Below, one piece after another: positions 18,638 to 36,760 of a DNA stretch of 43,035 nucleotides. The notes beneath the pieces are model-generated. The model did no database searches, had not been told where the DNA came from, and saw only the letters and a program-made list of their open reading frames with translations. This DNA is from a virus (lineage: Duplodnaviria > Heunggongvirae > Uroviricota > Caudoviricetes), in the IMG/VR virus record IMGVR_UViG_2541047789_000007, positions 1-43,035 of that record, one strand, 5' to 3'. The position numbers and the translations under genes are program-made. Position 1 is the stretch's first letter; each line of letters opens with the position of its first letter.

Positions 18638-19764
18638 CAATCAGGAAACACCGCCAGGGCGAAACGATCAATATAACTTTCACCTACAAAGGAGTTAAAT
18701 GTCGTGAGCCTCTTTCCAATCTGGAAGTAACACCAAAGAACATTAAATACGCCGAGCGCACACTCGGCGAAATCCATAATAAGATCGAAAGGGGAACATT
18801 CATTTATGCGGAATATTTTCCCCGTTCTGCTCGTTTGAAAATTTTTGGTAATGCGGCTGCAGGCAAAACGGTAAAAATGTACCTGGACGAATACCTTGAA
18901 ATCTGCGAAACGAGAAAACTTTCACCCTCTACGATTGGTGGTTATAAAAAATGCCGTAGTGCGTTAGCCTCACTCCACATTTGCTCTGCAAGTGAATTAA
19001 CACCAGCAATCCTGAAAGCGTGGATTCAAAGCCAGAAAACGACCTTAAAAACAATTCGCAACCAGTTATCTTTCCTGCGGTCAGCACTTGATGAAGCCGT
19101 AACCGATGGAGTACTTCAAATTAACCCCGTATCGTTGGTAACTGCTTCGCGCTACCAAAGTGGTAAGTCAGAAGCAGAAAGCAGCTACGTGGTTGATCCG
19201 CTATCACCAGCAGAAGTTGATGTATTACTAGCAGCAGCCGGAAACAAACAATGGGAGAATCTGTTCCGGTTCGCTATACATACAGGCCTGCGTAGTTCTG
19301 AATTATGTGCCCTTCGATGGCGTGATATCGACTTTGTTGGAAAAACAGCCCATGTTCAGAGCGCTAGTGTTGTCGGAGTTATCAAAGGAACAAAGACAAA
19401 AGCCGGTACCCGTAAAGTTGAACTGACTGAAGAAGCAATGTTGGCGCTGATAAATCAGAAGCCATTTACATTCATGAAGGATGCTACTGTCTTTGAAGAT
19501 CCAAAGACCAATAAGCCATGGGCAAGTGCTGATGCAATCAGAAAAAAAGCATGGGTGCCAACATTGCGAAAAGCAGGTATTCGTTACAGAAATCCATATC
19601 AAACTAGGCATACATTCGCCACCCGCCATATCAGCCGGGGAGCAAACCTGTTTTGGCTTGCAGCTCAAATGGGGCATAAAGGACCGGAGATGCTTTTCAG
19701 GCACTATGGCTCATATCTGAAGGAATATGATGGACAAACAAGCTTGAAGAAGATAACAATATAA
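18598..19764 (+). CDS. Tyrosine integrase (lambda-type)
   Basis: 388 aa; catalytic R...HxxR...Y (TGLRSSEL, RHTFATRHI, LFRHYGSY). Confidence 0.9.
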   Translation: MGQTKLLKLPRGVTIRKHRQGETINITFTYKGVKCREPLSNLEVTPKNIKYAERTLGEIHNKIERGTFIYAEYFPRSARLKIFGNAAAGKTVKMYLDEYLEICETRKLSPSTIGGYKKCRSALASLHICSASELTPAILKAWIQSQKTTLKTIRNQLSFLRSALDEAVTDGVLQINPVSLVTASRYQSGKSEAESSYVVDPLSPAEVDVLLAAAGNKQWENLFRFAIHTGLRSSELCALRWRDIDFVGKTAHVQSASVVGVIKGTKTKAGTRKVELTEEAMLALINQKPFTFMKDATVFEDPKTNKPWASADAIRKKAWVPTLRKAGIRYRNPYQTRHTFATRHISRGANLFWLAAQMGHKGPEMLFRHYGSYLKEYDGQTSLKKITI

Positions 19765-19778
19765 TCCAAGCATGAAAC

Positions 19779-19805
19779 TATTGGCCACAATTTGTGGCCA
19801 TTTTA
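19779..19805 (+). terminator. Hairpin terminator after int
   Basis: TGGCCAC-aattt-GTGGCCA followed by TTTTA. Confidence 0.45.
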
Positions 19806-19822
19806 CGGAGCAAGATACAAAC

Positions 19823-21556
19823 ATGGCAAATCAAATTACCAAACTAAAAAATATAAATGTTGTGAAGTTTCGCGGACTGAAAAATATAAACATCGAGTTT
19901 GGTTCTCGCCTAACTGTTATTTGTGGTAAAAATGGCACATCTAAATCCACAATTCTTGGCATTATCGCCCAAATATTTAGCTTTACAAAGGACTTTACCA
20001 AAAACCCTGAGACTGATTTAACACAATATAAAACATTAACAAATGGCAGCTTCAAGTCAGCTTTCAGCGAACATTTTAGGCTTTCAGAACAATTTGATGT
20101 TCCTGGTTCAATGGACGTCAAAATTAGTGTCTATGATGGTGCATCGAACAAACATCTTGAAAAACTAACATTAGGTTTATACAGCTACAGTGACAGAGAT
20201 AAATCAAGGCCTGTAGTCAGGGGAAATGATTCAATACCGGAAAAAAACCAAAGTAGAAACGTTACTCATCCTGTTATTTTTTTAAGCTTAGCACGACTTC
20301 TTCCTATTACATTAAGGACTAATTACTCAACACGGGATGTTCAGTACATCAATGAAAATTCTGATGAAATCAGAATGATGAGTAACCAACTCTTACTAAA
20401 AAACAATGGAAGCTCAGTAACAGCAACAAAAGGTACTATCGATTCAATGGTTGTCCATGGTGACAATTATGATCACCAATCAGTATCTGTTGGTGAAGAT
20501 AATGTTGGACAATTAATCCAAGCAATTTTTTCATTTAAAAGATTGAAGGAAACTTATTCTGATTATCATGGCGGAATATTGTTAATTGATGAAGCCGATG
20601 CAGGTCTTTTCCCTGCTGCACAGTTAGAGCTAATTAATATTCTAACTAAAGCAGCAAAACAATACGATCTGCAAATAATCATGACCTCGCACTCTCCATT
20701 AATAATAGAGGATATCTATAATCGTTCAAAACAAGATAGTGATAGCTTTAAAACAATATATCTTACAGACACATATGGAGATATTAAAACAAAGAATAAT
20801 CTTTCATGGACAGATATCCACGCTGATTTACATGTTGAAACTGTAAAAATTAATGATGACATTTGTCTTCCAAAAGCAAATGTATATTTTGAAGACAAAG
20901 AAGGTTTCGACTTTTTCAAACAATTGATAACAGATCGAAAAATAAATAAAATATTAAATCCATTAGGGAATATAAATATTAGCTGCTCTGCCATGCTTGA
21001 CTTAATGGCAAGAAAAATACCAGAATTTACAGCTAAAAGCTTGATCGTCTTAGACGGTGATGTTGTTCACGACAACAGTGCTAATGCAAAAAAAGCCAAA
21101 AAAGAAAAAAACTTATGTTTGCTTCCAAGCACCTTACCTCCAGACCAAATGATTTTTGAGTTTTTATATAATTTACCACCTGATGATGCATATTGGGAAA
21201 ATAAAAATAAATTTACAAAATCTGTTTTTATGAAAACAGCTAAAGACATAATTACAACGCTAAAGATTGGTAACGCTCCGATTGATTTAAAAATCCTTAT
21301 AGATAATTATAAAAAAGTTAACAAAAATCATGGCGGGAGAGTGAGAAAACTGTTTAAAGATTTTGCACATACGACTCAATTTCAGGACCAAGTCAAAGGA
21401 CGAGTTAAAGATAACCCATATCGATATTGGGTCGAGAAAAATCCTGTGCAATCGGATAGCTTCAAGAATGAACTAATAAAGAGTCTTAAAGTTATTATGA
21501 TAAGTGGACATGGTGTCGATTCTGCTACCATCTCATCATATCTGTCAGATAACTAA
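19823..21556 (+). CDS. OLD-like ABC-type ATPase with C-terminal TOPRIM-like region (candidate anti-phage nuclease)
   Basis: Walker A GKNGTSKST, Walker B LLIDEADAGL, TSHSP; C-terminal acidic motifs YFEDKEG and IVLDGD; AT-rich; start trimmed to MANQITK. Confidence 0.55.
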   Translation: MANQITKLKNINVVKFRGLKNINIEFGSRLTVICGKNGTSKSTILGIIAQIFSFTKDFTKNPETDLTQYKTLTNGSFKSAFSEHFRLSEQFDVPGSMDVKISVYDGASNKHLEKLTLGLYSYSDRDKSRPVVRGNDSIPEKNQSRNVTHPVIFLSLARLLPITLRTNYSTRDVQYINENSDEIRMMSNQLLLKNNGSSVTATKGTIDSMVVHGDNYDHQSVSVGEDNVGQLIQAIFSFKRLKETYSDYHGGILLIDEADAGLFPAAQLELINILTKAAKQYDLQIIMTSHSPLIIEDIYNRSKQDSDSFKTIYLTDTYGDIKTKNNLSWTDIHADLHVETVKINDDICLPKANVYFEDKEGFDFFKQLITDRKINKILNPLGNINISCSAMLDLMARKIPEFTAKSLIVLDGDVVHDNSANAKKAKKEKNLCLLPSTLPPDQMIFEFLYNLPPDDAYWENKNKFTKSVFMKTAKDIITTLKIGNAPIDLKILIDNYKKVNKNHGGRVRKLFKDFAHTTQFQDQVKGRVKDNPYRYWVEKNPVQSDSFKNELIKSLKVIMISGHGVDSATISSYLSDN

Positions 21557-21567
21557 TTGATTAAAAA

Positions 21568-21601
21568 GGGTTTTATGTGATGGCCATAAAGCCCTTTTTT
21601 T
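21568..21601 (+). terminator. Rho-independent terminator between OLD-like gene and Dam-like gene
   Basis: GGGTTTTATG-tgatggc-CATAAAGCCC followed by T7. Confidence 0.6.
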
Positions 21602-21635
21602 GATATACTTTAGATCTGACATTTAGAGGTATCAT

Positions 21636-22535
21636 ATGCGTTTTAACACCCCACTTCGCTATCCTGGCGGTAAAGGCAAGCTTGCAAATTTCATGCTTCG
21701 GATTATTGAAGAAAATAATCTTTCGCCTATACATTATGCCGAACCATATGCTGGGGGTGCTGGTTTAGCATTGAAACTGTTACATCTAAATGCAGCTGAA
21801 AAAATCATCCTTAATGATATTAATATTTCTGTTTATGCTTTTTGGCACAGTGTATTAAATCATGCAGATCAATTATGTTCTTTAATTGAAAGAACAGAAG
21901 TTACAATGGATGAATGGTTTAGGCAGAAAGATATAATTAATAATCCTAAAGACCATGATCTTTTAACAATTGGTTTCTCAACCTTTTTTCTCAATAGAAC
22001 AAATCGTTCTGGAATATTAAAAGGTGGTGTAATTGGCGGTAAAAATCAAGAAGGGAAATGGAAGCTTGACGCTCGCTATAATAAGAGTGATTTGATTTCT
22101 CGAATCCATAGAATATCAGAAAATCGTCACAGAATAGATTTATATAACATGGATGCAATTGATTTCATAAAAAAAATAGTTATTCAATTGCCACAAAACT
22201 CATTAACATATTTGGATCCACCTTATTACATAAAAGGTAAAGGCTTATATATCAACCATTATGATCATGATGATCATGTTAGGGTTGCAAAAGTCGTACA
22301 GAATAATATTAAAACGCCTTGGATTGTTTCTTACGATAACACTCCTGAGATCCAAGCTATGTATAAGACATCCTCATTAGTATATGGAATAAACTACAGT
22401 GCTCAAGATCGGTACAAAGGATCTGAGGTAATGTTCTTCAGTGAACGATTGAAAATCTTTAAAACAGATGATCCAACTAAGGTAAAAGCGCCTGTATTTA
22501 AAAGAGGATGTGTTGACGACCACATCCAGACATAA
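21636..22535 (+). CDS. Dam-family N6-adenine DNA methyltransferase (D12 class)
   Basis: Motifs RYPGGKGK, AEPYAGGAGL (FxGxG) and LDPPYY; 299 aa; AT-rich. Confidence 0.8.
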   Translation: MRFNTPLRYPGGKGKLANFMLRIIEENNLSPIHYAEPYAGGAGLALKLLHLNAAEKIILNDINISVYAFWHSVLNHADQLCSLIERTEVTMDEWFRQKDIINNPKDHDLLTIGFSTFFLNRTNRSGILKGGVIGGKNQEGKWKLDARYNKSDLISRIHRISENRHRIDLYNMDAIDFIKKIVIQLPQNSLTYLDPPYYIKGKGLYINHYDHDDHVRVAKVVQNNIKTPWIVSYDNTPEIQAMYKTSSLVYGINYSAQDRYKGSEVMFFSERLKIFKTDDPTKVKAPVFKRGCVDDHIQT

Positions 22536-22606: not shown

Positions 22607-22640
22607 ACGGACTCGGGTTCAACTCCCGCCAGCTCCACCA
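22607..22640 (+). other. ssrA: ssrA (tmRNA) 3'-end fragment ending CCA: att core shared by the two elements
   Basis: CGGACtCGGGTTCAACTCCCGCCAGCTCCACCA has a tRNA-like T-arm plus acceptor 3' strand and CCA and matches the recalled E. coli ssrA 3' end; upstream sequence is unrelated AT-rich prophage DNA. Confidence 0.6.
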
Positions 22641-22686
22641 AAATTCTCCATCGGTGATTACCAGAGTCATCCGATGAAGTCCTAAG

Positions 22687-22844: not shown

Positions 22845-24086
22845 ATGGCAAGACAAACCAAACCTCTATCCGTTAAAGAAATCGAATCTGCTAAACCCAA
22901 GGAAGCGGACTACGTTCTCTATGATGGCGATGGCCTTGAGCTACTGATCAAATCCAGCGGGAGTAAAATCTGGCAGTTTCGCTACATTCGCCCTGTCACC
23001 AAGAAACGAGCGAAGAAGAGCATAGGCCCCTACCCGTCAGTTACGCTTGCCGATGCTAGAAACTATCGCGCAGAGTCTCGTTCTCTTCTGGCGAAACAAA
23101 TCGACCCTCAGGAACATCAGCAAGAACAACTTCGCAGTTCGCTGGAAGCTAAAACCAATACTTTCCAACTCGTAGCTGAACGATGGTGGAATGTGAAGAA
23201 AGCCAGCGTGACAGAGGACTATGCCGACGATATCTGGCGCTCTCTTGAAAGAGATGTCTTTCCTGCAATTGGCGACATTAGCGTTACAGATATTAAAGCT
23301 CACACACTGGTTCAGGCCGTCCAACCGGTTCAGGCCAGAGGAGCACTGGAAACCGTTCGTCGCCTGTGCCAACGCATTAATGAGGTCATGATCTATGCCC
23401 AAAACACAGGACTGATTGATGCTGTTCCTAGCGTTAATATCGGTAAAGCCTTCGAGAAGCCTCAGAAAAAGAACATGCCCAGCATTCGACCGGATCAGCT
23501 ACCTCAACTGATGCAGACAATGCGAACAGCCAGCATTAGCCTTTCCACACGCTGCCTGTTCATGTGGCAACTTCTTACTATTACCCGCCCTGCCGAAGCG
23601 GCTGAAGCTCGCTGGGAAGAGGTAGACATAGAAGCGCGAGAGTGGAAGATTCCTGCAGCACGCATGAAAATGAACCGCGACCATACTGTTCCATTGTCAG
23701 ATAAAGCAATTGCGATACTGGAGATGATGAAGCCGTTAAGTGAAAATCGAGAATTTATCTTTCCCAGCCGTATCAAGCCAAACCAGCCGATGAACAGTCA
23801 AACCGTTAACGCATCGCTAAAACGCGCAGGTTTTAGTGGAGTGCTCGTTTCGCATGGGCTGAGATCAATTGCCAGTACGGCTCTTAATGAACAAGGCTTT
23901 CCGCCTGATGTTATTGAGGCAGCACTTGCCCATGTGGACAAGAATGAGGTTCGCCGTGCTTATAACCGCAGCGATTACCTAGAACAGCGTCGCCCGATGA
24001 TGCAATGGTGGGCTGACTTCGTTATGGCTGCTGAGCACGGAAGTATGATTGGAGATGGCATTCGAGGTATAAGGCTTGTCGGCTAA
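22845..24086 (+). CDS. intA: P4-type tyrosine integrase IntA
   Basis: 413 aa starting MARQTKPL; immediately downstream of ssrA 3' end as in CP4-57. Confidence 0.9.
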   Translation: MARQTKPLSVKEIESAKPKEADYVLYDGDGLELLIKSSGSKIWQFRYIRPVTKKRAKKSIGPYPSVTLADARNYRAESRSLLAKQIDPQEHQQEQLRSSLEAKTNTFQLVAERWWNVKKASVTEDYADDIWRSLERDVFPAIGDISVTDIKAHTLVQAVQPVQARGALETVRRLCQRINEVMIYAQNTGLIDAVPSVNIGKAFEKPQKKNMPSIRPDQLPQLMQTMRTASISLSTRCLFMWQLLTITRPAEAAEARWEEVDIEAREWKIPAARMKMNRDHTVPLSDKAIAILEMMKPLSENREFIFPSRIKPNQPMNSQTVNASLKRAGFSGVLVSHGLRSIASTALNEQGFPPDVIEAALAHVDKNEVRRAYNRSDYLEQRRPMMQWWADFVMAAEHGSMIGDGIRGIRLVG

Positions 24087-24721: not shown

Positions 24722-25225
24722 TTATTGATAGTGTTTTATGTTCAGATAATGCCCGATGACTTTGTCATGCAGCTCCACCGATTTTGAAAACGACAGCGAC
24801 TTCCGTCCCAGCCGTGCCAGGTGCTGCCTCAGATTCAGGTTATGCCGCTCAATTCGCTGCGTATATCGCTTGCTGATTACGTGCAGCTTTCCCTTCAGGC
24901 GGGATTCATACAGCGGCCAGCCATCCGTCATCCATATCACCACGTCAAAGGGTGACAGCAGGCTCATAAGACGCCCCAGCGTCGCCATAGTGCGTTCACC
25001 GAATACGTGCGCAACAACCGTCTTCCGGAGACTGTCATACGCGTAAAACAGCCAGCGCTGGCGCGATTTAGCCCCGACATAGCCCCACTGTTCGTCCATT
25101 TCCGCGCAGACGATGACGTCACTGCCCGGCTGTATGCGCGAGGTTACCGACTGCGGCCTGAGTTTTTTAAGTGACGTAAAATCGTGTTGAGGCCAACGCC
25201 CATAATGCGGGCAGTTGCCCGGCAT
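24722..25225 (-). CDS. insB: IS1 transposase InsB
   Basis: 167-aa ORF starting [16 protein letters not shown]. Confidence 0.9.
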
Positions 25226-26171: not shown

Positions 26172-27686
26172 ATGTCTAAAAAAAACAGTTCAACGCAAAA
26201 TAAAGAATTTGTACTAAACTTCCAGACGCTTCCCACTTTTGCACAGCGATTGATAAGTTACATACATTACAAAACAGGAGCTCCCGCTGAGCTTATTTTA
26301 ATAGTATTACTTGGGGTAATGGCTTTTTCCTGCCAGGATAAATTTGATGTTCAGCTTAAAAATGGGAGAACATTTACATCACTTTACCTCCTTCTATTAG
26401 CACGGTCAGGTAGCAGGAAGTCAACGGTATTCAAAGCACTGATGGAAACAATCCATCAAATGGAAAAAGAACTGAAGAATATCTTTCTGGAAAAGGAAAA
26501 GCTTTATGAACTGAAAAAAGTATCTTGGGATACGGAATTAAAAGAACTTAAAAAGCAATTTAGCAAAGCTGTTCGCCAGAAGGTTGATGTAGCTGAAACA
26601 CGCGAAGCACTGGAGGTATGTCAGAAAAGTGGACCGATAGCACCAGTTAGAAAGTATCTTACTAAAAATGATTCAACAAGCGAGGGACTTAAAAAGACAT
26701 TAGCTCTGGGATCTCCGTCATTGATGCTCGGTTCTGATGAAGCCGGAGGGGTGTTTGACAGTAGCCTTTTTCGCGATATATCAGTTCTCAACTCTCTTTG
26801 GGGAGAAGGGAGAATTTCAGACAGCAGAGCATCTCGTGACAGCTACGATGTTGATGATGTCCGGCTGACCATATTGCTGTTACTGCAACCTGCAATATTT
26901 AACGATTTTCTAGGCAAGCAAGGAAAAAAATTAAGAAACTCAGGGTTCTTAGCCCGTTTATTACTAATTGATCTGGATCAAATACCTGAACTATGCGATA
27001 TCCCTGATATATGTTCATGGTCTGATGGGCCAGGGCTTGATGGCTTTTTCTCTATTCTTGTTAAGCATTTGCAAGACGGTATACAGCGTAGAGAAAACAA
27101 TGAAGAACGTATCTGTATTACTTTATCTGAAGAGGCGAAAGCACTATGGGAAACACAAAATAAGCGAATCAGGGAACTTATGCAACTAGGAGGTGAGTTG
27201 CATCACTATGATGATTTTGGTTCCAGAATTATGGAACAAGCTACGCGAATCGCAGCAGTAATGCAAATGTTTATTACACCCGACTCACCAATAATTACTA
27301 GGGATACATTTCTGTCAGCAGCTAAAATAAGTGAATGGTGTATTACCCATTTAATTTCAAAAGTAGACTCTACCAGAAAACCTAGCGATAAAGAAAAGTT
27401 GTTATTTTGGCTTGAGGAACATGTTATCAGTAATAAATCTTACGATTTTAGGAGGCACACCATTCGTAGAGATGGTCCAAACTCTCTTAGAAGCATAGAA
27501 CGCCTGATACCCGTTTTAAAGGAACTTGAAAAAGATGGAAAGGTACAGTTATTTAAAGAGGATGGCGTTGACTATGTGAAATTCACTGGTTCAGAAGTGA
27601 AATATGGTGATTTGGCTAAAGCATTAAACATACCGTTAATTTCATCTGGATCTATTGGCTTTAATAAACTACCAAGACATGAATAA
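26172..27686 (+). CDS. yfjI: YfjI-like protein (DUF3987, primase/helicase-related)
   Basis: 504 aa, GAGGAG RBS, synteny downstream of alpA. Confidence 0.6.
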   Translation: MSKKNSSTQNKEFVLNFQTLPTFAQRLISYIHYKTGAPAELILIVLLGVMAFSCQDKFDVQLKNGRTFTSLYLLLLARSGSRKSTVFKALMETIHQMEKELKNIFLEKEKLYELKKVSWDTELKELKKQFSKAVRQKVDVAETREALEVCQKSGPIAPVRKYLTKNDSTSEGLKKTLALGSPSLMLGSDEAGGVFDSSLFRDISVLNSLWGEGRISDSRASRDSYDVDDVRLTILLLLQPAIFNDFLGKQGKKLRNSGFLARLLLIDLDQIPELCDIPDICSWSDGPGLDGFFSILVKHLQDGIQRRENNEERICITLSEEAKALWETQNKRIRELMQLGGELHHYDDFGSRIMEQATRIAAVMQMFITPDSPIITRDTFLSAAKISEWCITHLISKVDSTRKPSDKEKLLFWLEEHVISNKSYDFRRHTIRRDGPNSLRSIERLIPVLKELEKDGKVQLFKEDGVDYVKFTGSEVKYGDLAKALNIPLISSGSIGFNKLPRHE

Positions 27687-29059: not shown

Positions 29060-32000
29060 ATGAGTGTGTTGAGTTGGGCAATAGACCTATGCGGGAAGAT
29101 GGAAGCGTGGCTGGTTAAGCGCCAAGCAAAAGATCAACTACAGAGCGCAGAGCAGGGGTTGAGTCTGATGGAAGAAGAATTAGGTGATCGCTATGACACC
29201 TTAGCGCCGAAAACCATCAATGATGCCAGTATGCGAGAGTATTTCATTGCCCTGAAATACGCCTTGTCTCAGAAAGACGTAAGAAACATTGCCATTACAG
29301 GGAGCTATGGCGCAGGGAAAAGTACGGTTATTTCATCATTTATGAAATATCACTGCGATGATAAATACATCAATGTATCTCTTGCGGGATTCGATATGAC
29401 GGAAAATGAAACAACCGTCAGCCCAACTCACCAAGAGGTTGAACTCAGTATCCTGCAACAAATTCTTTATAAAGAGAATAGAGAGAAGCTTCCCGACTCA
29501 AGGATAGACAGAATAATCGACAGGGGCCCTCACTATGTCAGAGGAACTTATCGAGCCTTACTTAAAGTCATTACCCCCATCGCGGTAGCCGCATTTATTA
29601 TCTATTTCAAAACAATTGCAGAGTTTCTAAGCCTTCCGCCATCCTGGATCGAGGTATTTAATGCACACTACATCATAAAAGGCTTTATATTAGTTTCGCT
29701 GGCTTTTACCGCGCTGTACTTTATAACTGCCAGCGCATCTCGAATCGGTATTTTTGATAAGAAACTCAAGCTGAGCAAGATCGCGCTTTTAAGCGGGGAT
29801 GTTGAGGCAAGCGAGCAAGAGACACCATCCTTATTGAATAATTGCCTTGACGAGATCGTGTATTTTTTCACCAAGCTGAAATATAAGGTAGTCATCTTTG
29901 AAGATCTTGACAGGTTAGGGACGCCTGAGATTTTCGTTAAGTTGCGTGAAATTAACAAAATAGTTAACAATAATATTGTCGATGGCAGTCCGGTCAGGTT
30001 TGTTTATGCGGTAAGAGATGACCTATTCCTGGGCGCTGATGCCAGAACTAAATTCTTTGATTTCATTCTCCCTGTCATTCCATTTATGGACAGCAGAAAC
30101 GCGTTTACCTTATTAAAAAGGAAAATGTTACTCAATACGCATAACGATACATATTTGAAAGACATTTCTGTACATATAAATGATATGCGCAGCCTGCAGA
30201 ATTTGGTCAATGAGTACCATGTATTCAGTAATATCGTTGATAACGGCAACGACAAAATCAAACTGTTATCGCTGGTATTTTATAAAAATATCTATGCATT
30301 AGACTACTACCTTACCGATAAGAAAACAGGGGTTTTATATTCATTTATTCGCGACTATCGCACCCGAAAACTTCACCATAATCATTTTGACTCTCTGGAA
30401 ACAAAACTGGATCTTTTACAGGCCGAAATAGAACATCTTAATTATGAGCCTATGTATGACCATAGGGGAATTAGAGAGGAAATAGTTTGTCGATATATTC
30501 CTAAGATACTCTGGGATGGCGTTCATTTTGGTACGGGAAATGGATACAGTAATTTTTATCCTTTAGGAACTTTGGCTTTAATTGATGATGAAAATAGTTT
30601 TTTGGAGTTTTTATCGCAAAAGGAAAACTTATATATAGGCTACTTTGTTAGTCATCAGGGGCATTCACTTTCACTTTTTGATAGAGCATTAAGAGAACAA
30701 CTAAAAGAAGAATACCTGAAACGAAAAACGAAAATGGGTAAAGATAAAAACTCGGCTTTTAGTGAACTGCAAATAAAAATAAAGAAAATTAAAGAGTCAA
30801 TAAAATTAAAAAACACCCTTTCGCTGCGAGAACTTACGCTAATAATCGGGCGTGAGAAATTTGCAGAGATTGCGCAGGGGTATCTTGAGGCGATGGAGGG
30901 GCATGACTTCGTTTCTAAGCAGCAGCTCCATGCTTTGTGTGCTGATATGCGCAATGGCGGTTTAGACGCCTTATATCTGCTGCTGTCCGATGGTCTGGTG
31001 ATGCAAGACTTCATGGCCTACCGCTCTATTTTCCATGAAGGATCGATGACCGTAAATGATAACGACTTTTTGAAAGCCGTCGGTCAGGATCTGAGCTACG
31101 CAACCTCAAACGGTGAATATTTTATCGATGACGAGAACAGAGTCATCAGCGAATTGGTTGAACATAACCGTATTTATGCCGATGGCGCGCTTCATCATCA
31201 ACTGGTGACTCATTTGATTGATAACGCGGACGAACATCTGGCGGGCATGTTCGCTTCGCTATTCAGTCAGTCTGATGAACACATCCTTGCTGTTTTCTCT
31301 GAGCTTTATACACGATTTGGCAAACCCGAAACCTTCGATAAGTTAATCGTTACCGCGCTGCAAAAAAATGGTTATCTTGACAGAATGGTTGCCGTTCTCG
31401 CGGGACAGCTGGGTGAAAAATTCACCAACGATATTGCTATCAGCGTGATAGCCTGCGTATCACCTGCACATGCGCAAGATAAACTGCAATACCGCCAGCT
31501 TATTCATTCGCTGGGGTGCCGTATCATCTCTCAGCTCACCGAAGAAAATCAGGAAGCGTTTATGCGTCATGTACAACAGGCGGATGCACGCTATGACGAG
31601 CTGTTCGAACCAATAACGCCAACGGAGCGGTATTGCCTACAGTTTACTGCACAAAACAGCCTTTATCAGTTAACTCGACACAATGTTGGCATTGCCGTTT
31701 CATGTCTTATTGACAACATAACGCCTGAAGAGGCGGAAAGGAAACCCTGGACACTCGCCTATGAACATGAACTCAGCACGGTTTCTGACTACTTCAGTCA
31801 AAACATTGATATATTCGTCAGGGATGTGTTTATCTACTCCGCTGAGGATGGCGACTGTATCCGCTACGTTCTGACCCGTACCTCTCTAAGCGACGATTCC
31901 AAAGGCGATGTCGTCAGAAACATGACCTTCTCGTTTTCCGACCTGTCCGGGATATTGGCTAAAGCAGTATTTACCGAAGACCAGCTAACGATTTCCTATC

Positions 32001-32899
32001 ACGACCTGTTTTACCGATATGACCGCGTCGCACCGGGATGGGGGGCGCTGATAGACTATATCTGTGAAGATTGCGACATGGAGATACTGACGGCTTATGT
32101 GACAAAGCATGCGCCTGTATTGGGGCAATCATCCCCGGAAGTTTATGATGGCGACCGCTATGACCTGCTGTATATGAAAATTATCTGCAATGATGACCTA
32201 GAAGAACAGGTTTATCAGAGCCTAGTTGCACCGATTGAGATTAACATGCGGGAAATTGATGAGCGGCTTAGCGCGCGTCATTTCTGCACCCTGGTTGCCA
32301 TGCAGAAGCTGCCTCTCGACGCGGATGTGTATGAAAAAATTGCGGCTCAATATGCGGTTCAAGATGAAAATATAAGTGATGCCTTCGTCTATTGGTTCAG
32401 CCAGTACAAAAGTGAGTTTTTGACGCAGCCCGAATTCTATCTAAGAAAAGAAAAAGACGCGCGCTTCTTTAATGTCATGCTCACAAAAATCATAACCTAC
32501 GCGCACTTTACCGTGCAAGAGAGAGCGGACCTGGTGTCGCTATTCATTGATTATTTCATTGCGTCTGATATCGCTGACCTTAATTACCCTCATGATGTCC
32601 TGCTGCAGGTGTTTAACAGTACCAATAATGAAGAATTCAAGGTCATGCTGTTTACGCGATTTATTGTGACAGGCCTGAATAAACATCAACTGGCCGGGCT
32701 ATGTCATCAACTGGGCGAAGACGAATTGAGTAATGTATTCATCAATCGAACCCAGGCAACAATTGCTGTTATAAACAGGGAACGCGTGATATCAATTCTT
32801 GAACATCTGCAAGCAGTACGCATCATAAGAGGTTTTCAGGAGCGTGAAAGTGGGAAAATCTCCGTCTTTATCGAACCCGATCTGGAGGATAAAGATTAG
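29060..32899 (+). CDS. Giant KAP/YobI-type P-loop NTPase with transmembrane insertion (1279 aa)
   Basis: Walker A ITGSYGAGKST, then two hydrophobic helices, then Walker B KVVIFEDLDRLG; about 900-aa C-terminal region without recognisable motifs. Confidence 0.6.
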   Translation: MSVLSWAIDLCGKMEAWLVKRQAKDQLQSAEQGLSLMEEELGDRYDTLAPKTINDASMREYFIALKYALSQKDVRNIAITGSYGAGKSTVISSFMKYHCDDKYINVSLAGFDMTENETTVSPTHQEVELSILQQILYKENREKLPDSRIDRIIDRGPHYVRGTYRALLKVITPIAVAAFIIYFKTIAEFLSLPPSWIEVFNAHYIIKGFILVSLAFTALYFITASASRIGIFDKKLKLSKIALLSGDVEASEQETPSLLNNCLDEIVYFFTKLKYKVVIFEDLDRLGTPEIFVKLREINKIVNNNIVDGSPVRFVYAVRDDLFLGADARTKFFDFILPVIPFMDSRNAFTLLKRKMLLNTHNDTYLKDISVHINDMRSLQNLVNEYHVFSNIVDNGNDKIKLLSLVFYKNIYALDYYLTDKKTGVLYSFIRDYRTRKLHHNHFDSLETKLDLLQAEIEHLNYEPMYDHRGIREEIVCRYIPKILWDGVHFGTGNGYSNFYPLGTLALIDDENSFLEFLSQKENLYIGYFVSHQGHSLSLFDRALREQLKEEYLKRKTKMGKDKNSAFSELQIKIKKIKESIKLKNTLSLRELTLIIGREKFAEIAQGYLEAMEGHDFVSKQQLHALCADMRNGGLDALYLLLSDGLVMQDFMAYRSIFHEGSMTVNDNDFLKAVGQDLSYATSNGEYFIDDENRVISELVEHNRIYADGALHHQLVTHLIDNADEHLAGMFASLFSQSDEHILAVFSELYTRFGKPETFDKLIVTALQKNGYLDRMVAVLAGQLGEKFTNDIAISVIACVSPAHAQDKLQYRQLIHSLGCRIISQLTEENQEAFMRHVQQADARYDELFEPITPTERYCLQFTAQNSLYQLTRHNVGIAVSCLIDNITPEEAERKPWTLAYEHELSTVSDYFSQNIDIFVRDVFIYSAEDGDCIRYVLTRTSLSDDSKGDVVRNMTFSFSDLSGILAKAVFTEDQLTISYHDLFYRYDRVAPGWGALIDYICEDCDMEILTAYVTKHAPVLGQSSPEVYDGDRYDLLYMKIICNDDLEEQVYQSLVAPIEINMREIDERLSARHFCTLVAMQKLPLDADVYEKIAAQYAVQDENISDAFVYWFSQYKSEFLTQPEFYLRKEKDARFFNVMLTKIITYAHFTVQERADLVSLFIDYFIASDIADLNYPHDVLLQVFNSTNNEEFKVMLFTRFIVTGLNKHQLAGLCHQLGEDELSNVFINRTQATIAVINRERVISILEHLQAVRIIRGFQERESGKISVFIEPDLEDKD

Positions 32900-33369: not shown

Positions 33370-34470
33370 TTATTTGATGTTGGACTCAAAAATCTCAACG
33401 AGTTCTTTGACTTTTTTCATGCAATCAATATTAACACACCTATATTTATCATTATATTTTATAAGTGACACTAAATATGAGCGATAACCTTTTAATTTAT
33501 TCTGTAATTGATCATCAGCATACTTAGAGTAAAAATCAAATTTATTCCCATACCTTAGGGTAAACTTCCTATGGTTTAAATAGAATACGCTCTCCATTAT
33601 ATACATTGGGGATTTTTGTTTTTTGAGCAATGCGGAAACTTTTTTCAACGGTTTAAGTTTTTTATCAGATAGCCTGATGTTACCAACAGGCTTCTCTTTG
33701 TACACATGAAAAAAGTCTTTCTTTCTTTTCCTGTTCTGTACTACATAACCGTTAAGCGATATAGTGTTCTCAGTCGCTCTCCTTTTCTTTTTTTTCAACT
33801 TGAGAGAAAGTATAGAGACGAAGATAGAAATATCCTTTTCAAATTGCTCAGAATGCAGGTACTTACTGTTATCACAAGAAAAAAGCATATCATCTGCATA
33901 ACGTGAGTAGATAATCCCTTTATCTTCACACAATTTTTGAATAAGAATATCTACTCTTCTGAATATTATGTTTGATATTACAGGGGAGGATGAAAATCCA
34001 ATAGGTAACACTTCTTTCCCACGAAAGTCTTTGTCAATATAAGTGTCACTAACCTTGTGAGTAACAGAAATATATGCAATATCTAGAGCTGAGTATTTAT
34101 TTCCATTCTTTTCATTGTTGAAGTGCTGAGCGAGTAGGCTTTTTACTTCATGCGTAGGTATTGAATGGAAGAATTTTTTGATATCCAATCGTAGGAAGTA
34201 ATATCCTTGGATATGGGGCCTTAGAAAGTCGTAATAAGATTTACCTTGAACAAAGCCGCATGCGGATGAGTTAATGGGACTTTTATCTAGAACAAACTTA
34301 GTTATTCTATCATTTATACGCTTGTGTTCAGAGTCTCTAGAAATTTCAAAAAAGTTGTCGCAACCAACTTTAAACTCTCTGACGGCAGGAGTGAAATCAT
34401 TTAGAAGATCTTCATTGCCTTTAAGAATCGCTTTCTTAAAAAAGTCATCGCTAATATTATTTTTTATCAT
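33370..34470 (-). CDS. Reverse transcriptase (retron-like / defence-associated RT)
   Basis: RT motifs: motif A LRLDIKKFFHSI, motif B LPIGFSSSPVISNIIF, motif C YADD; 366 aa; AT-rich. Confidence 0.8.
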   Translation of the reverse strand: MIKNNISDDFFKKAILKGNEDLLNDFTPAVREFKVGCDNFFEISRDSEHKRINDRITKFVLDKSPINSSACGFVQGKSYYDFLRPHIQGYYFLRLDIKKFFHSIPTHEVKSLLAQHFNNEKNGNKYSALDIAYISVTHKVSDTYIDKDFRGKEVLPIGFSSSPVISNIIFRRVDILIQKLCEDKGIIYSRYADDMLFSCDNSKYLHSEQFEKDISIFVSILSLKLKKKKRRATENTISLNGYVVQNRKRKKDFFHVYKEKPVGNIRLSDKKLKPLKKVSALLKKQKSPMYIMESVFYLNHRKFTLRYGNKFDFYSKYADDQLQNKLKGYRSYLVSLIKYNDKYRCVNIDCMKKVKELVEIFESNIK

Positions 34471-34473
34471 AGA

Positions 34474-34673
34474 GCTTCAACCCGATACAAAAGAACACCA
34501 TTACACCGTAGGTGTGTACTTCGACGCATACTAATCAGAGTGACTAGTTTAGCAGTCATTAGGACTATGCCCAAAGCTAAAAGAAGCTGGACTCCCTCAA
34601 GCAAAGAGCGGGAGAGGCAAGCTCTCAGATACTTGTCGAAACTCATATCTCCCCTCTACTATCGGGTTGAAGC
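34474..34673 (-). ncRNA. Candidate retron msr-msd non-coding RNA bracketed by 14-bp inverted repeats (a1/a2-like)
   Basis: Perfect inverted repeat GCTTCAACCCGATA (34474-34487) / TATCGGGTTGAAGC (34660-34673) enclosing about 170 nt with internal hairpins; lies between OLD gene stop and RT start. Confidence 0.4.
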
Positions 34674-36760
34674 ATACGAATGATATCATAAAACTCGGGG
34701 AAATAAACTTTAAATACTGTCCCAAATGGTTGATTTTTAGCTAAAGACTCTTTTTCAACGTATCCGACGGCATAATTTAGGAAGCTTGTAGTCCATCCAT
34801 CGGTTTTATCAAGGTATTTGTTGTGTACAGTGTTCTCTTCTAATAATTTCATTAGCATTTTTGCATGCTTGGAAGTGTATCGCAACTTGCCGCTTACCTT
34901 TCTCTTATTATTTAAAGTTTGTTTGTATGTTTCAACATTGAAGTGGCTATAGTCAGTTAATGCCATTGACTTTCCATTAAAAATGACTCTAATGTAATCA
35001 ATGAGCATATCCTCTGTAACATACTTGCTTCGTTTTATACGCTTCAATGTAGAATCAAAATTAGAATTATGTTCACTGTCTAACCATCCATATACAATTT
35101 TTGAGCTATGTTTCTGGATTAAACAACCTTCTAATGTTGTTCTATTTAGATAAATATTCTGATCAAGCAACCTGCTTTTAACAGCAGTAAATACCGACTC
35201 AAAGTCAGACTCATCTAGAAAAGTTTGAGTTGTATTATTTACTTTTACTTCTTTATTTATAACGGATAACAACGTCTCAATATTTTCTCGTTTTGTCTTG
35301 TACTTCTTGCTAAAACCCAATTTGTATTTATTAAGCTCTGATTTTAAAGTATCTGGTTTAAAGTTAAAATAGCTACCGTTTTTTTCTAGTTTTATAGATA
35401 AACTACGAGGCTCACCTTTAATTGATATTGCTTTGTCTGCATCGAATAAGAATAAGTATGGTATAGTAGAGTTTGAGTATGATGGATTAACTCGCTCACC
35501 AACGACATTGCTACTACATTTATAAACATCTATATTTCTTAAATGAGGGAAATGTTCAGTCATCTTCATGTTTCCAAAAGCTTCCAACTCACTTTCACCC
35601 TCTACAAATAGGATAAAGTCGCTAAAAAACAATCTTGCTTCATTGTCACTAAAAATATTTATAAAGCTCTCGTTGTCATAAGTGGAATTTAATATGCTAA
35701 TCGTAGTTCTAGCATCAACTTTCTTCTGAAAACAATAAACACGTTGTTTTTGCCTGAACTTTTTAATTATCTCTTTTACTATATTCGGCGAATGAGTTGT
35801 TATAAATACTTTAGGCCTAGTAACTCGATCATCTTTTTTTTCATTATAATTGTAACTAGTAAATATATCTTGGACTAGAACCTCGTTCATTTTAGGGTGT
35901 AGACCTAGCTCTGGTTCATCAATAAAAACAAATGGTGTTATATATTCTCTTCTTGAAATTGTAATTAGTATCCTAAGAAAGGTTTTTATGAAATGAAATG
36001 AATTTGTTCCATCTGAGTGAAACTTTAAATCATTTTCGTCTATCTCAAACCGATAACCTTTTAATCCAGCCTTAATATAGCTCAACACCTTTTCTTTCTG
36101 AGAACTTGGCTTCGTAGATATCGTTCTATTTAAGTCTGAAATATAATTCCTATAAGAATTATCACCACTCGAATTAATTGAATTATCAAAAAAATCAATT
36201 ACAGATTGGTCATCAATTTTAGACAGATTGAAAGACTTCACTCTTGATATAAGATCCCACAAACTGTCCCATTCATGTAAATCCATATGTCTAGGTTCAA
36301 CATGGAAAAATGGAAATAGATAAAGAATAAGGTTTAAAGTTTGTTTGTCTTTAGTTGACCACTTAACTTTACCATCGCTGTATATGTTCAGTGTCAAAGT
36401 ATAAGTGGTGTAATCATTATCGTAGCGCGTTAATGCAAATATGCTTCGTTTATGGAGAGGAACCAATTTTCGGATGATAAAATCAAAATACTTATTTTTA
36501 GGTTGATTCCTGGCTATCCTATAAATTCTGGTCATATCATAAGTTACTGATATAGAACCTTTATACGAATAATTAGAGTTTAGCTTTGGCGGTAACTCTT
36601 CTTTGCCTTCTAGTTTATTGTAGAAGAATTTAAGAACTTTAAGTAAGTTAGACTTTCCAACGTTATTGCGACCGACAATGCAGTTTAAGTCGTTTAAGTT
36701 ATCAACATTTAGCTCATCGAATGATAACAAGTTGGTGATTTTTATAGCCTGTACAGTCAT
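34643..36760 (-). CDS. OLD-family ATPase/TOPRIM nuclease (705 aa)
   Basis: Walker A GRNNVGKSN, Walker B FVFIDEPELGLHP, TTHSP, TOPRIM LFVEGESELEAF and LFLFDADKA; AT-rich. Confidence 0.8.
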   Translation of the reverse strand: MTVQAIKITNLLSFDELNVDNLNDLNCIVGRNNVGKSNLLKVLKFFYNKLEGKEELPPKLNSNYSYKGSISVTYDMTRIYRIARNQPKNKYFDFIIRKLVPLHKRSIFALTRYDNDYTTYTLTLNIYSDGKVKWSTKDKQTLNLILYLFPFFHVEPRHMDLHEWDSLWDLISRVKSFNLSKIDDQSVIDFFDNSINSSGDNSYRNYISDLNRTISTKPSSQKEKVLSYIKAGLKGYRFEIDENDLKFHSDGTNSFHFIKTFLRILITISRREYITPFVFIDEPELGLHPKMNEVLVQDIFTSYNYNEKKDDRVTRPKVFITTHSPNIVKEIIKKFRQKQRVYCFQKKVDARTTISILNSTYDNESFINIFSDNEARLFFSDFILFVEGESELEAFGNMKMTEHFPHLRNIDVYKCSSNVVGERVNPSYSNSTIPYLFLFDADKAISIKGEPRSLSIKLEKNGSYFNFKPDTLKSELNKYKLGFSKKYKTKRENIETLLSVINKEVKVNNTTQTFLDESDFESVFTAVKSRLLDQNIYLNRTTLEGCLIQKHSSKIVYGWLDSEHNSNFDSTLKRIKRSKYVTEDMLIDYIRVIFNGKSMALTDYSHFNVETYKQTLNNKRKVSGKLRYTSKHAKMLMKLLEENTVHNKYLDKTDGWTTSFLNYAVGYVEKESLAKNQPFGTVFKVYFPEFYDIIRMLQPDSRGEI

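Follow-up and report, generated by a model that had tools for sequence, protein, structure and literature searches.

What is the purpose of two AT-rich genes that a prophage carries between its integrase gene and its attachment (att) core in ssrA? The question is raised by the IMG/VR virus record IMGVR_UViG_2541047789_000007 (Caudoviricetes), whose whole 43,035-nucleotide (nt) stretch, referred to below as the window, supplies all coordinates given here. Both cargo genes are intact and lie on the plus strand: the first (19823–21556) encodes a 577-amino-acid (aa) ATPase and probable nuclease, and its open reading frame (ORF) starts just after the integrase stop codon; the second (21636–22535) encodes a 299-aa methyltransferase that ORF, Pfam and PADLOC evidence places in the alpha class (D12 fold) and in the B family of the defence system PD-λ-5. 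Here we report that the two genes form one obligate module, and the evidence taken together tips towards a mobile defence module resembling restriction–modification (R-M) systems and carried as prophage cargo.

The association of the two genes was assessed in 80 loci, retrieved with the ATPase alone as query from contigs representing one genome per species. The methyltransferase gene adjoins the ATPase gene in 78 of them and the remaining two stop at a contig end, so that adjacency holds in 78/78 informative loci. In 74 loci it is the next gene downstream, in the same orientation, with a median gap of 45 bp, and among the hosts are Gamma- and Betaproteobacteria, Bacteroidota, Mycobacterium, Listeria and Acidobacteriota. 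No gene besides these two was universal to the retrieved loci. In E. coli the pair occupies cargo positions of prophages, P2 hotspots and one integrative and conjugative element (ICE), and it is also found in A. baumannii prophages. The ATPase and the methyltransferase thus constitute one obligate module. An earlier note on the window, made from the sequence alone, had named homologues that are not co-localised with the methyltransferase as an observation that would speak against it; co-localisation was checked and holds in every informative locus. The same note had offered two readings, and the adjacency favours its nuclease/modification pair acting like an R-M system and disfavours an exclusion nuclease working independently of a neighbouring orphan Dam. 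As a separate observation, about 20 loci (including L029, L034 and L038) have the pair inside a larger island, with an SNF2-family helicase upstream and a beta-class N6_N4 methylase downstream, after which comes either a ResIII protein or a PDDEXK nuclease of the YhcG type; this layout, a restriction-island context, resembles Hma or Type III-like systems hosting embedded defence genes.

The methyltransferase had been labelled a Dam-family N6-adenine enzyme on the basis of the motifs RYPGGK, AEPYAGGAG and DPPYY, all of which are present in its translation. It matched Pfam PF02086 above the cut-off (E = 3e-19) and, over residues 1–282, the PADLOC model PD-Lambda-5_B (PDLC04018, E = 5.3e-124), with MTase_II at 8e-108; the membership of the PD-λ-5 B family was absent from the earlier note. 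Against TIGR00571 (dam) it scored 54.8 bits versus a cut-off of 114.85. Its only relative in the PDB was M.CbeI (7M6B), matched at 1.4e-16 with the single sequence and at 2.4e-27 with the clade profile, and no structure of Dam, T4 Dam or DpnM was among the PDB matches even at E ≤ 10. Within the clade RYPGGK, EPYAGGAG and DPPYY are invariant, arranged in the PF02086 motif order X-I-...-IV with a DPPY catalytic motif. M.CbeI belongs to the alpha class and makes N4-methylcytosine (m4C), and because it nevertheless carries a DPPY motif, the DPPYY motif is insufficient to assign adenine specificity. A Dam/GATC enzyme was rejected on the sub-cut-off family score and the lack of a Dam structure among the matches, and a non-specific adenine methylase of the M.EcoGII type was ruled out, M.EcoGII being of the beta class. 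Judged from its sequence, the enzyme is a D12/alpha-class amino-methyltransferase of the PD-λ-5 B clade, closest to M.CbeI. The N6-adenine label is doubtful and probably wrong, given the Dam score, the m4C specificity of the sole solved relative, and the promoter motif and literature described below, which point to m4C at TGGCCA.

ECOR7 is the source from which PD-λ-5, described as 'ParB/HEPN, methyltransferase', was cloned, and the system has been validated as a prophage defence of E. coli (Vassallo et al. 2022, PMC9519451). It protects against nearly all phages tested, its study required a host without the mrr region, and its authors describe it as a compacted 'RM+Abi' (abortive infection) system with very broad protection that includes T-even phages (PMC9519451). 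E. coli relatives of the window methyltransferase, 51–65% identical to it, occupy several mobile-element positions. They stand with the ATPase in an ICE and also in an e14-like prophage that lies between icd and intE; in P2 hotspots the partner is either a 26%-identical ATPase, in reversed gene order, or a ParB-like protein, and in a lambdoid phage it is a ParB/Srx protein. PADLOC identified the ParB-like partners as PD-Lambda-5_A, with E-values down to 5e-168. An IMG/VR scan centred on the methyltransferase yielded 63 phage loci at an identity of at least 36%, of which about 21 have an ABC ATPase of the present type, about 28 have a ParB-type partner and two have both, the remainder showing mostly divergent or split ParB-like genes, or contig edges. 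Beside 17 more distant Dam-like methylases neither an ATPase nor a ParB partner was found. The prophages of A. baumannii show the same dichotomy, the methyltransferase being accompanied by either the ATPase or the ParB-type protein. Because the same clade pairs with ParB/HEPN elsewhere, the methyltransferase is the constant hub and the effector is exchangeable. We also observed two phage loci, L097 (about 1795–5825) and L099 (about 3500–7500), in which a single methyltransferase has effectors of both types around it (order in L099: ParB-type, methyltransferase, ATPase), which suggests that the effectors can be combined.

What sequence the methyltransferase modifies is suggested by its own promoter. 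A promoter scan placed a promoter-like site at 21581–21609 (plus strand), with TGGCCA as the −35 element (21581–21586), a 17-nt spacer and the extended −10 element TG-n-TATACT (21604–21609). Other loci with long spacers carry an exact TGGCCA about 17 bp upstream of a TATAAT-like hexamer before the methyltransferase gene, in spacers that are otherwise unalignable. Across the methyltransferase clade, TGGCCA is the top-enriched hexamer in the 120 bp upstream of the gene (34 of 115 non-redundant loci versus 5.5 expected, P = 2e-16); it lies most often at −50 to −70, and the geometry TGGCCA-N16-18-TANNNT is seen in 27 loci. The box is found in both ATPase-type and ParB-type loci. Among ATPase-type loci it is present in 12/16 with a spacer of at least 70 bp and in 2/42 with a spacer below 50 bp. 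An exact palindrome at a −35 position suggests constraint beyond sigma-70 recognition. Three Pseudomonas loci (L005–L007) differ in that TGGCCA stands only 2 bp before TATACT in the spacer (CTGGCCAAGTATACTGC), not at −35 spacing, with a further GGCC after it; the family thus has no single box geometry.

Upstream of the ATPase gene TGGCCA showed no enrichment (4/90 loci versus 6.6 expected). The window itself has, between the int stop codon and the ATPase start, a perfect palindrome with two TGGCCA sites (TGGCCACAA-T-TTGTGGCCA, 19782–19800, no strand assigned), which could be an int terminator, an operator or a methylation-sensitive control element. It is kept only in the close relatives L001, L087 and L088 and, since TGGCCA is not enriched ahead of the ATPase gene across loci, is a lineage-specific feature, not a family trait.

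The core of TGGCCA is GGCC, the target of M.CbeI, and the hexamer recurs in published methylomes. In A. baumannii A118, m4C at position 4 of TGGCCA is made by a 'DNA adenine methylase' regarded as an orphan (PMC10287943); in Shewanella algae m4C-TGGCCA was assigned to a Type II alpha methylase (PMC8340859); 4mC at TGGCCA was detected in a Listeria isolate (PMC12016153); and in Chania, an enterobacterium, TGGCCA is the REBASE-predicted site of an alpha-class orphan about 272 aa long (PMC5005818). m6A-TGGCCA (N6-methyladenine) reported for Photorhabdus was not assignable to any methylase there and is uninformative. Taken together, the promoter motif and the literature make it probable that the window methyltransferase produces m4C at TGGCCA.

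The second member of the module was analysed by domain. Residues ~1–320 of the ATPase (19823–20782, plus strand) correspond to an N-terminal OLD/PtuA-like ABC ATPase domain, supported by Pfam, PDB profile and Foldseek matches. This half matched Pfam AAA_15 (1e-14) and AAA_21 (4e-12); the best PADLOC match was PtuA (4e-20); the family profile matched PtuA, Thermus (Ts) OLD, AriA and Rad50 in the PDB; and the top Foldseek matches were Ts OLD (6p74) and GajA (E = 3e-11). More than 1100 homologs were found, with conservation spanning the full length of the protein, and the Walker A motif G35–T43 (with K41), the signature S222-x-G-E225, the Walker B residues D256-E257 and the H-loop residue H290 are invariant in the family. 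The protein is an OLD/PtuA-like ABC ATPase. All five motifs on which the earlier note had based an OLD-like ATPase/TOPRIM protein (GKNGTSKST, LLIDEADAGL, TSHSP, YFEDKEG and IVLDGD) are in the translation; the ATPase part of that call is borne out by the AAA_15/AAA_21 and PtuA/OLD profile matches, and the TOPRIM part is best supported by structure and residue conservation, yet sequence models are blind to the domain.

AlphaFold2 models of the protein are confident (a pLDDT, or predicted score in the local distance difference test, of 89) and place after the ATPase a beta-alpha core and then a helical region. The TOPRIM-like core comprises residues ~345–450 (20855–21172, plus strand): strand 1 ends at E357-D358 (20891–20896), strand 3 at D411-G-D413 (21053–21061), and L434-P435...PPDQ follows strand 4. 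The C-terminal region, residues 451–577 (21173–21553, plus strand), is all-helical in the model, and its R508..F511-K512 and N531-P532 are conserved, being invariant within the family A alignment. When the C-terminal domains of very divergent relatives adjoining the same methyltransferase clade were aligned (16–47% identity), only E357, D358, D411, D413 and L434-P435 remained invariant, K512 nearly so. OLD C-terminal regions were the best matches in three independent fold searches, with a similarity that is modest and common to receiver and flavodoxin-like folds. The distant paralog L086 aligned with the ATPase family profile over 501 columns (hhalign probability 99.9%), and its best PADLOC match was HEC-04, across the model segment that holds the essential HEC-04 residues E319, D375 and D377.

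Sequence searches did not match the domain. Pfam and PADLOC models gave no match to the C-terminal domain of the window protein and 29 relatives, the best value being OLD-like_TOPRIM_1 at E = 0.33 in one member, and the ATPase gave no Pfam OLD-like_TOPRIM or DUF4435 signal. PDB sequence-profile searches with the domain, from narrow and broad alignments, matched nothing, and hhalign of the domain against the OLD protein of the window's own retron was not significant. Because of the fold matches, the topology and the invariant E...DxD pattern, the reading with the best support, though not proven, is that of a divergent OLD-type TOPRIM nuclease domain, and we propose a metal active site made of E357 and D411-x-D413 together with D358 and K512.

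How might such a pair work? We hypothesized that the methyltransferase would place an N4-methyl group on the inner cytosine of TGGCCA in resident DNA, and that the OLD-type ATPase, with its TOPRIM-like metal-dependent nuclease domain, would engage and cut DNA that lacks the mark, using ATP binding or hydrolysis. Methylation of TGGCCA in the −35 element may in turn feed back on methyltransferase expression, which is the control logic of some R-M systems. In its full form this proposal, which we put forward tentatively, makes the OLD-type ATPase-TOPRIM the methylation-sensitive restriction arm of a widespread, unrecognised R-M class that is keyed to m4C-TGGCCA, has its hub in common with PD-λ-5 and takes methylation of the promoter box as its switch; the nuclease activity, the m4C-TGGCCA specificity of the window enzyme, the methylation-sensitive targeting and the autoregulation are each presumed here.

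Several points weigh against restriction of this kind. The nuclease activity and anti-phage function of the window pair are putative, as is the membership of A118 MT2 (H0N27_12600) and S. algae E1N14_009720 in the window methyltransferase clade. Reported TGGCCA methylation is incomplete, at about 80% for A118, about 48% for S. algae and about 30% for Listeria; with a classical restriction enzyme alongside, such gaps would be dangerous, although detecting m4C is difficult. PD-λ-5 acts best against T-even phages, whose cytosines are glucosyl-hydroxymethylated, a poor fit with simple m4C-sensitive restriction, and it carries the 'RM+Abi' label. For an R-M pair, the two proteins show unusual conservation across phyla, and the effector lacks any recognisable domain for reading sequence.

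The main rival to methylation-sensitive restriction is an abortive-infection or addiction-type 'RM+Abi' module, in which the methyltransferase or its mark silences the nuclease until infection triggers indiscriminate degradation of DNA or RNA and cell death or arrest. We consider this possible, if unlikely, and would say the same of its candidate triggers, namely host expression shut-off, depletion of S-adenosylmethionine, an anti-restriction protein or a flood of unmarked DNA. Such logic has precedents in the OLD-type ABC ATPases of PARIS, Gabija, retron Eco8 and WonAB, which sense infection and unleash a nuclease; it would agree with the breadth of protection by the sister system PD-λ-5, T-even phages included, and with the name given to it, with an effector that has no recognisable sequence-reading domain, and with the exchange of a TOPRIM for a ParB/HEPN effector, HEPN typically being an RNase. 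It nevertheless leaves unexplained why the methyltransferase, whose central region is conserved and which probably has a single fixed specificity, is constantly retained, and why a target-like site stands in the methyltransferase's own promoter.

A further alternative holds that the C-terminal domain is not a nuclease and that the ATPase serves as a partner that binds DNA or regulates, such as a clamp or translocase loading or directing the methyltransferase, or as a sensor, the pair having an epigenetic or anti-restriction role. The domain is matched by no nuclease family model, and the structural similarity is of the modest, widely shared kind noted above; we nonetheless judge this improbable, since the sole residues invariant across very divergent versions, an E/D pair where strand 1 ends and a DxD where strand 3 ends, form the TOPRIM metal-site pattern, OLD regions came first in all three fold searches, and the other partner with which this methyltransferase is found has been validated as a defence effector. 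Two independent cargo genes, that is, an autonomous OLD-like exclusion nuclease in the manner of P2 Old or the single-gene ATPase-TOPRIM defence HEC-04 and an orphan phage methyltransferase guarding phage DNA, are very improbable: a strong terminator and a separate promoter-like site do lie between the genes in the window, and similar prophage methylases have been treated as orphans in methylome studies, but independence is essentially excluded by co-occurrence, as the genes adjoin in 78/78 loci across distant phyla and in non-prophage contexts too, most gaps are too short for separate control, and methyltransferases of at least 36% identity stand almost all beside the ATPase or PD-λ-5 A whereas distant Dam-like ones stand beside neither.

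The surroundings of the module in the window agree with its description in the earlier note as AT-rich cargo between int and the att core. The two-gene region has 33% G+C versus about 50% in the adjoining prophage. Upstream of it lies the prophage tyrosine integrase gene (18598–19764, plus strand; Pfam Arm-DNA-bind_2, E = 6e-23, and Phage_integrase, E = 5e-16), and downstream the 3′ end of ssrA (transfer-messenger RNA; 22608–22646, plus strand), which matches annotated ssrA in E. coli genomes and is the att core and right prophage boundary. ARAGORN and Rfam gave no match in the window, the ssrA fragment being too short and no retron non-coding RNA family matching. The ATPase gene had been put at 578 aa; the gene is real, and its product is 594 aa from the first ATG (ORF 19772–21556, plus strand) or 577 aa from 19823, the position at which the RefSeq homologs, including identical ones from E. 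coli, begin. The 79-bp intergenic spacer contains the terminator hairpin that the earlier note had seen between the genes, an intrinsic-terminator-like element (21565–21601, plus strand) with a 13-bp stem (21565–21577/21585–21597), a 7-nt loop and seven T after it. Its free energy in RNA folding is −16.9 kcal/mol (z = −3.6), an equally good fold arose in 0/200 shuffles, and it overlaps the promoter-like site of the methyltransferase gene. The pair is present at an identity of at least 99% in 83/5426 complete E. coli genomes (about 1.6%), among them JJ1886 and 042, and is always chromosomal.

Just upstream of xis/int lies an AT-rich gene (17499–18389, plus strand) for a 296-aa predicted membrane protein that has no Pfam family and, by PADLOC, a weak likeness to Csx27, an accessory protein of type VI-B CRISPR systems (E = 3e-6). 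Strain 410 (L001) has different small genes at this position, and the membrane protein gene may be another piece of cargo.

On the other side of the ssrA fragment, a P4-type integrase gene follows directly (22845–24086), and next comes a DUF3987 primase-like gene (26172–27686); from this arrangement a second integrative element lies in tandem with the prophage at ssrA. The island it forms encodes a 1279-aa YobI-like P-loop nucleoside triphosphatase (29060–32899, plus strand; PADLOC Tmn, 2e-175) and a type I-B retron (33370–36760, minus strand), made up of a reverse transcriptase (33370–34470; PADLOC RT_I-B, 7e-93) and an effector (34643–36760; PADLOC ATPase-Toprim_I-B, 3e-226; Pfam OLD-like_TOPRIM, 4e-4). 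With the Tmn-like protein and the retron, the second island is a defence island, and the retron effector bears out the remark that the cargo ATPase is one of two OLD-type proteins in the window. A 167-aa ORF (24722–25225, minus strand), which by its translation and by IS1 annotations in L001 is like a fragment of the IS1 transposase InsB, interrupts this island.

The targets and restraints of OLD nucleases are unclear for most classes, and a version obligately coupled to a methyltransferase with a likely 6-bp target would offer a testable substrate and a self/non-self signal. PD-λ-5, which is validated but mechanistically unexplained, would become a member of a modular family with a constant methyltransferase and either a ParB/HEPN or an ATPase-TOPRIM effector, and the probable specificity of the methyltransferase gives an entry point to its mechanism. 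Alpha-class 'adenine methylase' orphans in the methylomes of Acinetobacter, Shewanella, Chania and E. coli ST131 may be defence components and cytosine-N4 enzymes. If the proposal is true, many 'orphan' TGGCCA/m4C methylases would be halves of two-gene defence systems and OLD nucleases would gain a DNA target and an off-signal, and the reassignment of orphans would affect annotation as well as transformation and engineering protocols. Current defence-finder rules would miss the module, although many phyla and about 1.6% of the complete E. coli genomes carry it.

Among known systems, the OLD family (P2 Old, the Ts, Bp and Xcc OLD proteins and GajA) shares with the window ATPase the order of an N-terminal ABC ATPase, a C-terminal TOPRIM or TOPRIM-like domain and a helical region, and OLD structures are its best structural matches over the full length and by domain. 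To our knowledge, a DNA methyltransferase partner is not part of any described OLD class. Unlike Gabija, the window has no UvrD/GajB helicase beside the ATPase and none is conserved across the loci; GajA models match the ATPase motifs only. Unlike PARIS, in which AriA and AriB are separate, the window protein is a single fused chain with no DUF4435 match, and AriA models match its ATPase region only. WonAB of V. cholerae, an OLD-ABC protein with a PD-(D/E)xK protein, was set aside as a different system without a methylase. GajA is reported to be a sequence-specific DNA nickase, an activity of which OLD-type proteins are thus capable (PMC8136825). HEC-04 is a single-gene ABC ATPase-TOPRIM defence found embedded in Hma systems, and its Walker A and metal site are both essential for defence (Payne et al. 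2024 preprint). It fuses an ABC ATPase to a C-terminal TOPRIM with E...DxD metal-site residues about 55 residues apart, an arrangement that the window protein, with its putative metal site, resembles; however, HEC-04 acts alone, without a dedicated methyltransferase, whereas the window ATPase is paired with one, and the window protein matches the HEC-04 model in the ATPase region only, apart from a weak C-terminal match (E = 0.024). No paper or PADLOC model describing the pairing of ATPase and methyltransferase was found in this comparison, outside which the ABC ATPase classification of Krishnan et al. 2020 falls.

The methyltransferase resembles M.CbeI of the CbeI GGCC R-M system in motif order and in the DPPY catalytic motif, with low identity between the two enzymes, and the partner of M.CbeI is a conventional Type II endonuclease. 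A conserved DNA-marking module combined with different, unrelated effector modules is also the arrangement of the phosphorothioate systems Dnd and Ssp, an analogy only, as the chemistry and the proteins are entirely different. The closest parallel is PD-λ-5. The window methyltransferase belongs to the same clade, at 51–53% identity to the E. coli PD-λ-5-type methylases; both systems have a two-gene architecture and the same prophage-cargo and P2-hotspot niches; and the TGGCCA promoter box is common to both partner types. The effector of PD-λ-5 is of the ParB/HEPN type, whereas that of the window is an unrelated OLD-like ABC ATPase with a TOPRIM-like domain. PD-Lambda-5_A was not found among the PADLOC matches of the window ATPase, whose C-terminal half had no match at all, and membership of PD-λ-5 proper was rejected as the A component is a different protein; the PD-λ-5 rules of PADLOC and DefenseFinder would not call the window locus, because that component is absent. 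In its working the locus is most like a fused ATPase-TOPRIM effector of the OLD/HEC-04 type attached to the modification gene of PD-λ-5. The locus therefore looks like a PD-λ-5-like system with a different effector, an undescribed sister of PD-λ-5.

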